A DNA stretch of 22,540 bases, taken from IMG/VR virus record IMGVR_UViG_2526164690_000046, one strand, 5' to 3'. Numbering within the stretch: the first letter of the stretch is position 1; every line of letters begins with the position of its first letter. The position numbers and the translations under genes are program-made. This document shows positions 1 to 22,540 of this stretch, piece by piece. The notes beneath the pieces are model-generated. The model did no database searches and was not told the DNA's origin. It worked only from the letters and a program-made list of their open reading frames with translations. Source of the stretch: a virus. Taxonomy: Duplodnaviria; Heunggongvirae; Uroviricota; Caudoviricetes.

Positions 1-1236
1 CTATGATAACCGCGCATTCAACATGGCTATCTGTTCGTCGTTCATGTCATCAATCCACATACCGTAAATTTCATACACCATCTGCGCAGTTTCATGCCCC
101 ATTTGGCTGGCTATAAATGCCGGGTTCGCTCCTGCCGTCAACAGCCAGCAGGCAAAAGTATGCCGCGTATGGTACGGATTACGGCGGCGAATACCAGCAC
201 GTTTTACTGCTGCATTCCACCTTGCCCCCAAACTGCTTACCGAGTAATAAGGTTTTTGTTTTCCGTTACACACCCTGGGCATGAAAACAAAATGCAGTTT
301 TTGCTTTTCGGTTCTGCCGTACTCCCGATGATAAAAGGTGATTTCGCTTTTGCGATGATGCCCGGTCAGTTTGTATTGCTCCTTCAGTGCTTCAAGAGCA
401 GGCTGCAGTAGTGTTACTGTCCGGATCCCGGCATTTGTTTTTGGGGGACCGAACATATCAAGTATCGTCAGGTTTCTTCTGACATTCACTATTCCCTTTT
501 CGAGATCCACATCCTCCCACGCCAGAGCTGCCAGTTCCCCGTGACGAAGTCCTGAGTAAACTGCAAATTTCCACATGTTCTGGCTCTGTCCTTTTTCACT
601 TTCCATTAATGCATTGAATTCTGTTTTAGATAACGGATCAGGCTTTATTCTGTTTCGCTGTAATTTTTTTACTCCTTCAAATGGTTTGGTTGATATAAAT
701 CCCGACTGATACGCAAAACGTAACAGCGAACAGAGCAGGGCGATATAGTTATCAACTGTGCGCACGGTTCTTCCTTTTTTGTTGGATCTTGGATTATCCA
801 GGTAAAGCGTTTCTCCATGCAGCAGTTCATTCCGGTAGTTTAAGATATCGCTATAACGAATATGTGATATCAGGGTACTTTCACAAATTATTATTCTGAG
901 TGTTTTTAATTGTGATTTCGTTTTCTTCATTGTGTTTGTTGTTAACTCTGTCTCTTTAATTTTTGTCCAGATATCACAAAGCTCTCCGAACGTTTTTATG
1001 ACTCTCGTTGTCACCATTTTTGCCCCAGTGCTGGACTGGGGAAAACGTCTTAAATACTCAAATTCACCGGAGTTTATTTCATGAACTATCAGCGCTCTTA
1101 AATTTCCGGCCTTTTTAATATTACTGTTTGTAATCTCCCAGCCTTTTAATGTTTCCCGACATCGTTTTCCTCGAAACATGAACCAGATGCGAATGTATCT
1201 ACCTCTAATCTCGACACCTGTTGGTAATTTAGACAT
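1..1236 (-). CDS. intR: Phage tyrosine integrase (Rac-prophage IntR type)
   Basis: 411-aa ORF from the track; tyrosine-recombinase-like C-terminal region (..RHGELAALAWEDV.., ..HTRHTFACWLL..); length equals what I recall for Rac IntR; start codon sits 2 nt from the stop of the adjacent xis-like gene. Confidence 0.85.
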   Translation of the reverse strand: MSKLPTGVEIRGRYIRIWFMFRGKRCRETLKGWEITNSNIKKAGNLRALIVHEINSGEFEYLRRFPQSSTGAKMVTTRVIKTFGELCDIWTKIKETELTTNTMKKTKSQLKTLRIIICESTLISHIRYSDILNYRNELLHGETLYLDNPRSNKKGRTVRTVDNYIALLCSLLRFAYQSGFISTKPFEGVKKLQRNRIKPDPLSKTEFNALMESEKGQSQNMWKFAVYSGLRHGELAALAWEDVDLEKGIVNVRRNLTILDMFGPPKTNAGIRTVTLLQPALEALKEQYKLTGHHRKSEITFYHREYGRTEKQKLHFVFMPRVCNGKQKPYYSVSSLGARWNAAVKRAGIRRRNPYHTRHTFACWLLTAGANPAFIASQMGHETAQMVYEIYGMWIDDMNDEQIAMLNARLS

Positions 1237-1237
1237 A

Positions 1238-1453
1238 TCATGAGTCTTTGATAAACTGATTTATCTTTGGATAGTTGTACCAGATAATCCCTCGTTTGCT
1301 GTCTGGCTTACCTAAAGGAGATACTCGTTTGAAGTGGAAGCCCTCCACCCAACAGTTCTGGCGGTATGCTTCAATTTGTCTGGCCCCCAGACCAGTGCGA
1401 AGCATCAGGCCGTATTCAACCATCCACTCTTCATTAAAGATTACTTGTGCCAT
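1238..1453 (-). CDS. ydaQ: Excisionase-like protein (YdaQ/XisR-like)
   Basis: Small ORF immediately upstream of int on the same strand; internal Met ([11 protein letters not shown]..) gives 71 aa, the recalled YdaQ length; the track ORF extends 8 codons further upstream (to 1477). Confidence 0.65.
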
Positions 1454-1552
1454 CGCATCACCTCTGGCAGGCGCCAATGTTAGACTGAAATTGACGCCCG
1501 ATGTTGATTATTAATAATCAGCTATGAAGTTTTAATTTGAATACAATGCAAT

Positions 1553-1813
1553 TCACGAGGACTGAAGTTTCTCGCAATTAAAATTTATCAGTTTTACTTT
1601 CTGCTCTCTGGAAACGCCTGCTTCTTTTTTACCTGAGAGCATTTTTTCGCATTCTGATTTCGTTAGTTTAGATTTTGAATATCTTGTCCAGTTAGTAGGA
1701 GTGCCACCTTCCTTTTCAATAGTGGCGGTAATTTTATACATGAACACCTCCATTATTATTTCCAGTGGTTCGTTTATTTCATCGTTCGAGTGCTTCTTTT
1801 TCACTTCCACCAT
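1553..1813 (-). CDS. ydaC: Small Rac-prophage protein (YdaC-like); start codon uncertain
   Basis: 86-aa track ORF between xis and ralR in the conserved Rac order; several in-frame Met codons are possible starts. Confidence 0.5.
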   Translation of the reverse strand: MVEVKKKHSNDEINEPLEIIMEVFMYKITATIEKEGGTPTNWTRYSKSKLTKSECEKMLSGKKEAGVSREQKVKLINFNCEKLQSS

Positions 1814-1928
1814 AACCGGTTCGGGATTCGCATCCGTTACACTTCGCTCGGTAATATCCTGAAATGGCTTTCACCGTTACTGATGGACAACCACAAAATG
1901 GACATGGTTTAACATTGTCATATCTCAT
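1734..1928 (-). pseudogene. ralR: Restriction-alleviation protein RalR/Lar-like gene interrupted by an in-frame TGA at codon 50
   Basis: Minus-strand ATG at 1928 reads MRYDNVKPCPFCGCPSVTVKAISGYYRAKCNGCESRTGYGGSEKEALER then TGA (plus-strand tca at 1779-1781); reading through continues in frame (NKRTTGNNNGGVHV) to TAA at 1734-1736, giving exactly 64 codons, the recalled RalR length; CxxC...CxxC zinc-ribbon motif. Confidence 0.5.
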
Positions 1929-1983
1929 AATTTTTCTCATAAAAATATTTCAAGTTGGCGGTGCATTACACCGCCAGGCTGAA

Positions 1984-21261: not shown

Positions 21262-21329
21262 GGTAATTACCCTTCATTACTATACCTACATGGTAATTAC
21301 CATTGTACTTGCCATTACACAAAAATCAA
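21255..21329. promoter_or_regulatory. Divergent promoter region with two palindromic operator candidates GGTAATTACC
   Basis: Palindromes at 21262-21271 and 21292-21301 inside a 14-bp direct repeat ACATGGTAATTACC; plus-strand TTGACA (21255-21260) overlaps the RHH start with a poor -10 (TACTAT); minus-strand -35 TTGATT (complement of 21324-21329) and -10 TACAAT (complement of 21302-21307). Confidence 0.5.
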
Positions 21330-21391
21330 CGCCCCGCAGTGCTGGGAACACATACGGGGCGTCTAACCAACAACGTAAACTAGGAGCCGTT

Positions 21392-21952
21392 ATGGTTGCC
21401 GTAAATCATATACCACACCTTGTACACACACAAACGGCCTTTGTGTGGCGTTTTCTGGCCCTGAATATCGGAGAAAAAAACCAGTTGATCGCCAGTGTCG
21501 AAAATAGCTATGATTCCCGCGCACCTCATAAAACGGGTGCCGGGATTGGCGTCCTGGGCAAAACTGAAGCGCATAACACGCGCCCCGCGTGTTTTTTTGT
21601 GCCGCATAGTCACACCTTATCAATGGTGGGCTGTACGGGGGCGGAGCAATCCGCGCCGGTTTCTTCAGTGTCCGGTTACGCCAACCCTGTACAGTCCGCC
21701 ACCAGCGAAATTGGCGTTTCCGGTGGCGGTTATCTTAACCACACTGAGGAGGCTGCCAACATGGCTACTATCCCTACCCTTGTACATTCTCAAACCGCCT
21801 TTCTCTGGCGCTTTATCATCTTTGGCGCGTCAGAACATCAAATCATCCACGTAACCGCCTGGACGGAACGCGAAGCGCGTAGCCGTTGCCCGTCCGGTTG
21901 TGTTGCTGTATTCGCCGCCCGTATTCGTCAGGAGGTGTGCCATGTGCAATAA
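21392..21952 (+). CDS. Tandem Icd-like (cell-division-inhibitor-like) protein; second copy may start internally at 21761
   Basis: ATG 21392 with AGGAG SD; internal ATG 21761 with GAGGAGG SD; both halves carry ..TQTAF(V/L)WRF.. and the second has ..HVTAWTEREARSR.. as recalled for Icd-like proteins; no stop between them. Confidence 0.5.
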   Translation: MVAVNHIPHLVHTQTAFVWRFLALNIGEKNQLIASVENSYDSRAPHKTGAGIGVLGKTEAHNTRPACFFVPHSHTLSMVGCTGAEQSAPVSSVSGYANPVQSATSEIGVSGGGYLNHTEEAANMATIPTLVHSQTAFLWRFIIFGASEHQIIHVTAWTEREARSRCPSGCVAVFAARIRQEVCHVQ

Positions 21953-22163
21953 AACCACACCGGACGCAGCAGCCGCCGCGCTCACTACGCTGATGCACGC
22001 GCTTATCGATATTGAATGCACTGCAGAGCTTGCGCAGGGAGAAGAACAGAAAGACCGGACACAGTTCGCCCTGGAATGTATCCGATACATCGCAACGCGG
22101 TCGCTGAATGACGCTAAAAATATTCTTGTTGCTGATTGTGAAAATGGGGGGGGTTATGCGTGA
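21942..22163 (+). CDS. Hypothetical small protein (73 aa)
   Basis: ATG 21942 with GGAGG SD, overlapping the upstream stop. Confidence 0.45.
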   Translation: MCNKTTPDAAAAALTTLMHALIDIECTAELAQGEEQKDRTQFALECIRYIATRSLNDAKNILVADCENGGGYA

Positions 22164-22377
22164 TGATCGTTTTAATTCCCTGAAACAAGAATTTTCCGGC
22201 GTTCCTGATGATGCGGCTGATGCGCTTTCGTCAATATCTGAAATTATGCGGGTGGCTTTTTTCTTTCTTTGCACTGATGAGCACAGAGATACAGGGCTAA
22301 ATATTCTTGATATTGCCGCTAACTATGCTGATTTCGTGACAGAAGCTGTTTTAAGAAAAACAACGGACGGGGATTAA
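22156..22377 (+). CDS. Hypothetical small protein (73 aa)
   Basis: ATG 22156, overlapping the previous stop (ATGCGTGA). Confidence 0.45.
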   Translation: MRDDRFNSLKQEFSGVPDDAADALSSISEIMRVAFFFLCTDEHRDTGLNILDIAANYADFVTEAVLRKTTDGD

Positions 22378-22378
22378 T

Positions 22379-22540
22379 ATGCGTGATATTTACCACGAAA
22401 CAATAGACCGCGCATTTAGTGCCCTTGCTTACGCTGAAGGTATGTACGAAATATTGCGCATATGGCTTGAAACACTTGGCGACAATGAACGCGACAAACA
22501 AAAATCAAGAATTGTCACGGCATTAATAAACGCTTCTTGA
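22379..22540 (+). CDS. Hypothetical small protein (53 aa)
   Basis: ATG 22379 one nt after the previous stop; TGA is the last codon of the window. Confidence 0.4.
   Translation: MRDIYHETIDRAFSALAYAEGMYEILRIWLETLGDNERDKQKSRIVTALINAS

Follow-up and report, generated by a model that had tools for sequence, protein, structure and literature searches.

A proL-type satellite island inside the late operon of a Rac-site prophage of Escherichia coli

An island in a split esterase gene

The virus record IMGVR_UViG_2526164690_000046 (Caudoviricetes) is a stretch of 22,540 nucleotides, called the window here whenever its full length is meant, and it joins two elements: positions 1-18538 cover the early genes, the nin region and Q of a complete lambdoid prophage that sits at ttcA, the attachment (att) site of Rac, and the sequence from 18539 onward belongs to an integrative island whose normal target is the tRNA-Pro gene proL. 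The whole window recurs at 99.9% identity in the complete genomes of two bovine E. coli O111:H11 strains from South Dakota (88-19539 and 88.0502) and, because they match it throughout, its architecture is not a chance pattern. At least 80% of the window is covered in 60 genomes; in all 18 of the other genomes among the matches listed, the match ends exactly at 18538. In 88-19539, the window starts at the intR stop codon, 51 bp past ttcA, and the att repeat that forms the left end of the prophage lies ~100 bp outside the window. This is the same 43-bp ttcA repeat as in Rac, and the right end of the prophage precedes uspF, again as in Rac.

The limits of the island follow from an alignment of the prophages of 88-19539 and H19, which gave two collinear blocks: positions 1-31541 of the 88-19539 locus (L001) correspond to H19 2001-33541, and L001 40316-42595 to H19 33541-35820. 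Between the two blocks, L001 holds 8,774 additional base pairs (L001 31542-40315; window 18539 onward) that are absent from H19. The interrupted gene is intact in H19, where it encodes a 616-aa protein of the domain order DUF1737-SASA-DUF6645, which we take to be a prophage sialate O-acetylesterase of the NanS-p type. Junction mapping leaves codons 1-62, with the DUF1737 domain, on the left of the island (18353..18538, plus strand), and the open reading frame (ORF) at 18353-18601 thus consists of 62 esterase codons and 20 island codons, with the break after codon 62. Past the island, the esterase gene resumes in 88-19539 and is followed by genes for holin, RrrD lysozyme, Rz, Rha, Nu1, TerL, portal and protease and, further on, for decoration and capsid proteins, tail proteins, J, Lom and tail fibres, and by three NleG-type (DUF1076) effector genes.

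A reading of the window from its sequence only (the sequence-only reading) had noted that lysis and morphogenesis genes are missing downstream of the late promoter PR', that an integrase module begins about 1.5 kb later, and that either the island had entered the late region or the late region had been lost. The window indeed contains no such genes, and the integrase gene starts at 18764, ~1.5 kb past PR'. Insertion, not deletion, took place, because H19 is collinear across the intact esterase gene and the late genes of the same phage resume after the 8,774 bp that H19 lacks. A late region deleted and replaced by the island would likewise produce a window without lysis or structural genes; we give this almost no credence, for both matching genomes carry, to the right of the island, the 3' remainder of the esterase gene, the lysis cassette and a complete set of head and tail genes. 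Extension past the window also located the far end of the island (L001 40315): its boundaries are sharp, and the lysis and structural genes come after this boundary rather than directly after the window. The flanking direct repeats that had been anticipated at the island ends did not materialize, as just 1-3 bp are common to the two ends and there is no block of att identity.

Gene content and family of the island

The left end of the island (the P' arm; 18539..18763, plus strand) opens with CCGACCA (18539-18545), a remnant of the 3' end of a tRNA-Pro gene; a tRNA gene scan of the window found none, and the link to tRNA-Pro is known solely from related loci. The arm contains CACCGRA repeats (18553-18579 and 18637-18653), a terminator (18592-18619), the putative arm-type motif TTTAGTTATACG in two successive copies (18677-18700) and two inverted copies of it (18707-18732). 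It is followed by the integrase gene (18764..20005, plus strand), which encodes a P4-family tyrosine recombinase with Arm-DNA-bind_3, Phage_int_M and Phage_integrase domains. The best match to this integrase among phage records was 53% identical (Klebsiella phages); we rejected such matches as signs of a closer relationship, and they show membership in the broad P4-type family only. A gene for a 76-aa hypothetical protein (20104-20334, plus strand), a terminator (20342-20365) and further CACCGRA repeats (20467-20483) precede an AlpA-like helix-turn-helix (HTH) regulator or excisionase gene (20502-20708, plus strand), which was recognized by Pfam AlpA at E=0.0028, below the gathering score, and by a PHROG excisionase/regulator family at E=2.5e-6. 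The CACCGRA repeats have a 10-bp spacing and occur both at the left end of the island and just upstream of the alpA-like gene; the two places share a 33-nt segment that is 76% alike, and the island of an O26 strain has one unit fewer. Their arrangement suggests that they may be a binding site, still putative, of the regulator or excisionase.

Next comes a "dynamic zone" with an ORF of 409 aa (20723..21952, plus strand), which is probably not one real gene: PGAP annotates Icd-like, Ash and again Icd-like pieces along it, and the Ash domain (PF10554) was found at E=1.8e-16. Two RNAs, one isrK-like (21521-21597) and one C4 antisense (21619-21706), lie within the same ORF; both are above the Rfam gathering score and by these matches form an RNA immunity module of the P1/P4 type, whose layout resembles the c4-icd-ant immunity operon of phage P1. 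Small hypothetical genes (21942..22540, plus strand) fill the remainder of the window, which ends within the island.

Beyond the window, the island continues for ~4.8 kb (L001 35383-40315) with genes for a DUF4222 protein, RepA, a small terminase subunit (TerS)-like protein and a major capsid protein (MCP)-like protein, along with iterons and the right arm motif, and its right end reads ...CTCTCGTG. RepA is a 466-aa AAA_25 helicase with a primase-like N-terminal region. Directly past its stop codon lie three copies of AAAAAGTGGGGAGTAAAA, ~84 bp apart (L001 37317-37529), in what looks like an iteron origin of the kind found in phage-inducible chromosomal islands (PICIs), a putative assignment. 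Further small genes come between these iterons and the TerS-like gene. The TerS-like protein has a Terminase_2 HTH, and the MCP-like protein is a 307-aa homologue of HK97-type capsid proteins. All annotated genes of the island lie on the plus strand, in the same orientation as Q and the late genes.

The criteria for Gram-negative PICIs (Fillol-Salom 2018, PMC6092414) include a size of about one third to one fifth of that of a phage. The island has an int gene followed by an alpA-type regulator at one end of a unidirectional set of genes, its own replication initiator with an iteron-type array immediately 3' of it (as a putative origin), and a length of 8,774 bp without lysis or tail genes, in which the TerS-like and MCP-like genes are the sole virion-related ones. 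PICIs are further expected at a chromosomal att site that prophages do not use; the family's site is proL, yet this copy lies in a prophage gene. On the strength of this gene organization (PMC6092414, PMC10111431), and as it lacks Psu, Sid and Delta, the island classifies as a Gram-negative PICI rather than as a P4-like satellite or a capsid-forming PICI.

The sequence-only reading had called the island P4-like, and part of this label stands. The island shares with P4 and P4-like satellites, as delimited by SatelliteFinder (PMC10085698), an integrase of the P4 family, an AlpA-like protein, Ash and a C4/CI-type antisense RNA; a primase/helicase-type replication protein completes the set of Int, AlpA, Ash (epsilon) and alpha primase-helicase, with the reservation that this protein is not clearly a P4 alpha. 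The label fails on the psu-delta-sid operon, which is missing (no annotated ORF of the island has a Pfam or PHROG match to Psu, Sid or Delta, and no unassigned plus-strand ORF of at least 100 aa is left), on the Gram-negative PICI organization and, unlike P4 and its relatives, on the TerS-like and HK97-type MCP-like genes and the canonical site at proL. The gene set of capsid-forming PICIs comprises MCP, portal, protease, connectors, TerS and TerL/HNH. Only TerS-like and MCP-like genes are present here, and Pfam and PHROG searches of the island found no portal, protease or large terminase, which sets it apart from islands described in general terms as encoding all proteins for small capsids and their packaging (10.1101/2022.09.08.507074).

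Neither virion-related protein leads to a particular helper. An identification of the TerS-like protein as Rpp was rejected, as it had no PDB match to RppC and matched, marginally, the HTH domains of small terminases only. The MCP-like protein had no sequence match in the PDB; it is ~26% identical to phage MCPs, and the matching records include many Shiga toxin (Stx)-converting phages (identity <60%), which may be a weak hint to the type of helper, from which no helper can be named.

Normal site, junctions and mode of insertion

Where islands of this family normally reside is evident from other genomes. The island is present at no less than 80% coverage in 165 of 5,426 genomes, and its Int protein is identical to WP_000101718.1 of islands resident at proL. 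In the O26:H11 strain FWSEC0001, a 99.8%-identical island with this same Int lies directly after proL, between yejM and yejO; in the O111:H8 strain 9662, an island of 95% DNA identity, whose Int variant (WP_000101907.1) is 94.7% identical, is also at proL; and strain Nissle has, at proL as well, a relative that has the identical Int and left part and carries a primase, an SSB, and capsid and decoration homologues. Judging from these loci, the natural target of the family is the 3' end of the tRNA-Pro gene proL. That the present copy occupies a different, non-canonical site is the main point that lay beyond the reach of the window sequence alone.

The canonical att sites share the 10-bp core CTCTCGTGCC. 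Canonical attL reads ...TCCTCTCGTGCCGACCAAATCGCC..., the 3' end of the tRNA being supplied by the island, and canonical attR reads ...ACTACTCTCGTGCC-AAAAATCCC...; the empty attB at proL of K-12 is ...CTCTCGTGCCGACCAAAAATCCC..., and the island attP is …ACTACTCTCGTGCCGACCAAATCG…. Compared with the K-12 attB, canonical attR has lost 4 bp in O26:H11 and 5 bp in O111:H8, in both cases just after GTGC(C); attR copies of the proL islands lie at 12740-12760 of locus L003, at 13510-13530 of L004, and also in L013. These 4-5-bp losses match the variable "damage" of the attR tRNA fragment that has been published for PICIs whose target is tRNA-Pro or certain other tRNA genes (PMC10111431).

In 88-19539, proL is itself occupied by a related PICI (NZ_CP077491.1, L013 4839-14240), whose Int is 94.7% identical to that of the window and which is 90% identical to the window's island over the left 2.5 kb and 96% over the right 2.7 kb. 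This sibling has a different regulatory zone, a primase in place of RepA and a 96%-identical TerS/MCP module; compared in this way, the two satellites display modular exchange. With the proL PICIs of E. coli, which are relatives of the model PICI EcCICFT073 (Fillol-Salom 2018, PMC6092414; 2019, PMC6739421), our island has in common the identical Int and, in FWSEC0001, a 99.8%-identical copy at proL, as well as a unidirectional int-alpA-rep order, iterons 3' of rep and a capsid-protein homologue. It differs from them in its location and in carrying a RepA-type helicase and a Terminase_2-type TerS-like protein, not Rpp, without any sequence match to RppC, of which crystal structures are available (PMC6739421).

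The attL of the window is GAGCCGGAG|CCGACCAAATCG, with the island beginning CCGACCA..., its attR is AAACTACTCTCGTG|GTACTACG, and the empty site in H19 is GAGCCGGAG-TG-GTACTACG. Both island ends fall inside the 10-bp canonical core (CTCTCGTG^CC), of which the esterase target has only GTG in common, and the two junctions, taken together, are 2 bp short of what a conservative exchange would yield, the loss being at the same place as the damage in canonical attR. Inside each end is a perfect 26-nt direct repeat (TTTAGTTATACG twice), ~140 bp from the left and ~90 bp from the right end; we predict these to be arm-type binding sites, because the doubled motif of helper-embedded PICIs (HE-PICIs) has the same geometry (PMC10111431) and the Int has an arm-binding domain. 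The attL junction was found in two of the 5,426 genomes, both of them bovine O111:H11 from South Dakota, and the other top matches listed for the left end of the island abut tRNA-Pro, except for one old Nissle assembly, where it is annotated bglX. The insertion is one clonal accident and not a site preference.

Taken together, we consider it highly probable (about 85%) that a PICI of the proL type was put off-target, by its own integrase, into the late operon of the complete lambdoid prophage that occupies ttcA. The 8.77-kb PICI would have entered the first gene of this operon, the NanS-p-type esterase gene between Q/PR' and the lysis cassette, when its tyrosine integrase acted on a non-cognate site; the island probably arrived in a cell whose proL already held the related PICI, and the two missing base pairs would be the attR damage typical of PICIs that target tRNA genes. 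An insertion made by the integrase is indicated because a purely illegitimate event is not expected to break the island exactly at the crossover core. The off-target insertion would resemble the secondary-site integration of lambda when attB is unavailable, in which an integrase likewise uses a site of poor match. The same holds for HE-PICIs found off-target in chromosomal genes (PMC10111431); their direction is the reverse, as here a PICI of a chromosomal site landed in a prophage; no off-target relatives were reported among 2,701 fis/hpt PICIs (PMC10111431).

Several points weigh against this reading. Tyrosine recombinases as a rule require the overlap to be identical in both partners, and only 1-3 bp match here; the joining may have been aberrant or in part illegitimate. 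Occupancy of proL is no strict block, as the core of the resident attL is intact and tandem PICIs are known; the action of the integrase at the esterase site is deduced from the sequences of the junctions; and the surrounding prophage shows, in the comparisons made, no sign of being the island's cognate helper, since the two have no DNA, cos-like or other, in common and the TerS-like and MCP-like proteins of the island are unrelated to Nu1 and gpE of the prophage.

Homology of just 1-3 bp with a net loss of 2 bp is typical of end joining, and the prophage encodes RecE and RecT, so that an excised or linearized island might have been joined by integrase-independent, microhomology-based illegitimate recombination, possibly with help from RecET. 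This has a slim chance of being correct: both ends lie within 2 bp of the canonical crossover core, which requires breakage exactly at attP, that is, integrase cleavage, and similar small deletions occur at canonical attR sites that the integrase made (PMC10111431). An assembly artefact, created from two related PICIs in one genome, could be suspected from the second island, which is 90-96% identical over parts of its length, and from the homopolymer indels of the window, which are typical of long-read assemblies; however, the window and two complete genome records that were deposited separately all show the same junctions, the esterase halves flank the island at one nucleotide position, and the junction sequences are unique rather than repeats, leaving only a very faint probability of such an error.

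The off-target PICI has the same configuration as the HE-PICIs, which sit inside late genes of lambdoid helper prophages, point the same way as these genes and belong to one integrase clade with 14 sites (PMC10111431); our reference for them was Eco567.11capE of E. coli NRG857c (Tommasini, Mageeney, Williams 2023, PMC10111431). Like these, it is a Gram-negative PICI (~9-11 kb in this group) embedded, in the same orientation, in the late operon of an otherwise complete lambdoid prophage. From left to right, the elements compared have int-alpA, a dynamic zone (Bro/Ash/Icd) that includes immunity RNAs, DUF4222 and a primase/helicase, and finally a late zone in which a capsid homologue lies; doubled arm motifs are situated ~130-150 bp inside the left and ~80-95 bp inside the right end, and the composite exceeds the packaging tolerance of lambda. 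A genuine HE-PICI that has evolved a tropism for this gene, with the surrounding prophage as its helper in an adapted cis-regulatory partnership, could therefore be proposed, and both the embedded, co-oriented position and the shared geometry of the arm motifs (PMC10111431) speak for it.

Membership in the HE-PICIs nevertheless fails on clade, type of site, att identity and recurrence, and we regard this proposal as very improbable. The island's Int is only 24.6% identical to the 11capE integrase and by this measure stands outside the clade, and DNA similarity to 11capE is confined to short patches. In HE-PICIs, the doubled motif TGTATTGC lies ~81 bp upstream and 132 bp downstream of the attP centre (PMC10111431); this motif is absent from the window's island, in which a different doubled motif, TAGTTATACG, occupies comparable distances. 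The island does lie inside a gene of the late operon, but this is an accessory esterase gene just past Q, not the cognate of a lambda gene, and corresponds to none of the 14 published lambda-cognate late-gene sites. HE-PICIs have a block of identity between attL and attR at a recurrent site, which contrasts with the 1-3 bp seen here and with a single clonal event (2/5,426 genomes, both bovine O111:H11 from South Dakota) free of recurrent tropism. The identical Int targets proL elsewhere, and the lack of any cos or packaging-gene likeness to the prophage leaves the latter unsupported as a helper. The parts are all of known kinds, a Rac-family lambdoid prophage and a PICI of the proL type; what sets this case apart is an off-target event that is rare and confined to one lineage.

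Expected effects of the insertion, and the prophage around it

The island should have broken the esterase gene. The island is co-oriented and separates PR' from the lysis cassette, so that Q-antiterminated transcription from PR' would have to pass through all 8.8 kb of it to arrive at the lysis and head genes, and would include int, alpA and rep. A terminator scan found several terminators on the plus strand of the island, which polymerase modified by Q should ignore, such that int, alpA and rep would be expressed late after induction and the expression of lysis and head genes would depend on read-through of these 8.8 kb. Excision is expected to be poor, because attL and attR are nearly devoid of identity around the junction, and would be unable to restore the esterase reading frame because of the 2-bp loss. 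The composite prophage measures 56,281 bp, as opposed to 47,507 bp without the island (+18%), and lambda packaging tolerates an excess of roughly 10% (as cited in PMC10111431). As a transmissible phage, the prophage is probably crippled unless the island leaves, which would mean that the insertion disables an NleG effector-carrying prophage of the cattle O111:H11 lineage. The expectations about read-through, excision and length are extrapolated from the biology of lambda.

The locus might also be viewed as a natural snapshot of how helper-embedded satellites originate: an ordinary tRNA-site PICI, excluded or diverted from its chromosomal site, lands in co-orientation directly past Q/PR' in a complete lambdoid prophage, has its int, alpA and rep driven by Q, and is copied with the prophage as part of a working composite. 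We hold this to be doubtful; if it were true, it would be a cis-regulated satellite-in-phage composite derived from an integrase clade not known to target prophages. For the off-target insertion itself, the locus provides a case, at base-pair level, that the integrase of a chromosomal-site PICI can put its island inside the late operon of a prophage, with a junction that carries the small deletion typical of the integrase class, in a genome where a sibling island already fills the normal site. The case would thereby exemplify both competition between satellites for a site and an accidental route to the helper-embedded configuration. For annotators, the locus is a warning that late genes seemingly "missing" after Q may have been displaced by a nested element.

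The mosaic makeup that had been proposed for the prophage part was checked by BLASTN against Rac, Qin and DLP12 of K-12. The Rac-like early arm was borne out: window 1-6623 (intR, xisR, ralR/RalA, recT, recE, racC, ydaE and kilR) is 99.2% identical to K-12 Rac, and 7843-10366 (ydaT-ydaU-ydaV-ydaW) is 98.4% identical. The arm begins with the Rac-type integrase gene intR (1..1236, minus strand; assigned through the annotation of the 99.9%-identical genome, 99.2% identical in nucleotides to K-12 Rac) and proceeds on the minus strand (1238..6228) with xisR (1238-1453), a DUF1187 gene (1553-1741), ralR (1779-1928), recT (1984-2792), recE (2785-5385), racC (5487-5762), ydaE (5837-6007) and kilR (6007-6228), with RalA small RNA (sRNA) on the plus strand (1557-1735; Rfam). 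An immunity pair follows, in which HTH domains (HTH_3/HTH_17) were found: a cI-like repressor gene (7100-7518, minus strand) and a cro-like gene (7598-7852, plus strand). This region (~6980-7843) had no BLASTN match to racR/ydaS of K-12 Rac, and the sieB gene of K-12 Rac is absent from this prophage. The Rac-type replication block (plus strand) is composed of ydaT (7849-8271), ydaU (8284-9141), ydaV (9148-9894) and a ydaW-like DUF1627 gene (9917-10678). Integration at ttcA by IntR, the recET-kilR arm and ydaTUV-type replication genes make this a Rac-type lambdoid prophage with different equivalents of racR/ydaS. Unlike K-12 Rac, it is complete and has Q, genes for lysis, head and tail, and NleG effector genes. 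K-12 Rac is a deletion derivative: all that would lie from ydaW to the tail-fibre region is missing from it, and BLASTN found nothing in it that matches window 10367-22540. We place the prophage in the enterohaemorrhagic/atypical enteropathogenic E. coli O26/O111 lineage, with K-12 Rac as a deleted relative and a nin/Q region that has modules in common with Qin.

The nin-like block of small genes (10694..14079, plus strand), absent from K-12 Rac, encodes DUF977, DUF4406, RseB-domain and DUF551 proteins, a DUF4014 pseudogene and others; for a 289-aa ORF at 12990-13859, PGAP gives only fragments and the DUF551 protein. It is followed, on the plus strand, by sok RNA (14156-14331; Rfam), hokD (14326-14481), orf93 (14649-14927), a ydfU-like DUF968 gene (14929-15978), rusA (15991-16365) and the late antiterminator gene Q (16362-17182). 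The resemblance of this block to Qin, which the sequence-only reading had proposed for hok, the ydfU-like gene, rusA and Q, holds for some of them. The order hokD-(small orf)-ydfU-Q is that of Qin, the hokD segment (14312-14575) is 98.9% identical (BLASTN), and the ydfU-like stretch (14632-15978) is 83.8% identical in nucleotides and 84.5% in amino acids; Q gives weak support, with 40% amino acid identity to YdfT of Qin and no nucleotide match, and rusA gives none, because Qin has no rusA between ydfU and Q. The relBE, rem and cold-shock genes of Qin are in turn absent from the present prophage. RusA is 40% identical in amino acids to that of DLP12, a likeness limited to the protein, as BLASTN found no nucleotide similarity between DLP12 and the window. 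Of the architecture that had been proposed, the Rac-type arm, the hok-ydfU-rusA-Q block and the foreign integrative island persist, the P4-like label does so in part, and the likeness of rusA to Qin does not.

A PR'-like promoter and a terminator had been noted, and both were recovered after Q, with the promoter as a weak, putative candidate: TTGATT-N16-TGgTAAATT (17188-17215, plus strand), with an extended -10, was read by eye and scores 8/12, below the scan threshold. The terminator scan placed a strong tR' (plus strand; stem at 17263-17280 plus a T-run, region to 17288) after the stop of Q at 17182. The late leader carries as cargo a TerB-family pseudogene (17420-17782) and a DUF3927 gene (17779-17945), followed by the sRNA STnc100 (17952-18142, plus strand) and the anti-GcvB sRNA AgvB (18144-18205, minus strand; both Rfam). 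These two sRNAs (17952-18205) stand between Q/tR' and the esterase gene, the position that stx occupies in Stx phages.

At the right end of the prophage, the three DUF1076 genes (NleG-family type III effectors) are arranged in tandem (L009 18901-20901), and the PICI insertion thus lies within an effector-carrying phage. To the right of the holin gene (L001 42596 onward versus L002 35821 onward), the O111:H11 prophage diverges from the otherwise 99.98%-identical H19 prophage, with different lysozyme and Rz genes and with Rha in one and PerC in the other, which reflects an exchange of the late region between lineages.

Compared with 88-19539, the window has one substitution and eleven 1-bp indels, mostly in homopolymer runs (at 2452, 7114, 16726, 17918, 17945, 18124-18180, 22145 and 22530); four cluster in the STnc100/AgvB region (18124-18180), some of them outside homopolymers. 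Wherever H19 and 88-19539 share such a site, the two have the same sequence and the window alone departs from it. The indels cause frameshifts in the window only, splitting recT (at 2452) and Q (by a 1-bp deletion in the A7 run at 16726; Q is intact in both reference genomes) and altering the C-terminus of the cI-like repressor (at 7114). We rejected real pseudogenization of these three genes as the default, given the homopolymer runs and the disagreement of both reference genomes and H19 with the window; the pattern points, as the most likely cause, to assembly noise in the window's source. The sibling strain 88.0502 (NZ_CP077567.1, left of 3694000) has an additional 1.34 kb, an IS4-like ISVsa5, somewhere in the early part of the prophage.

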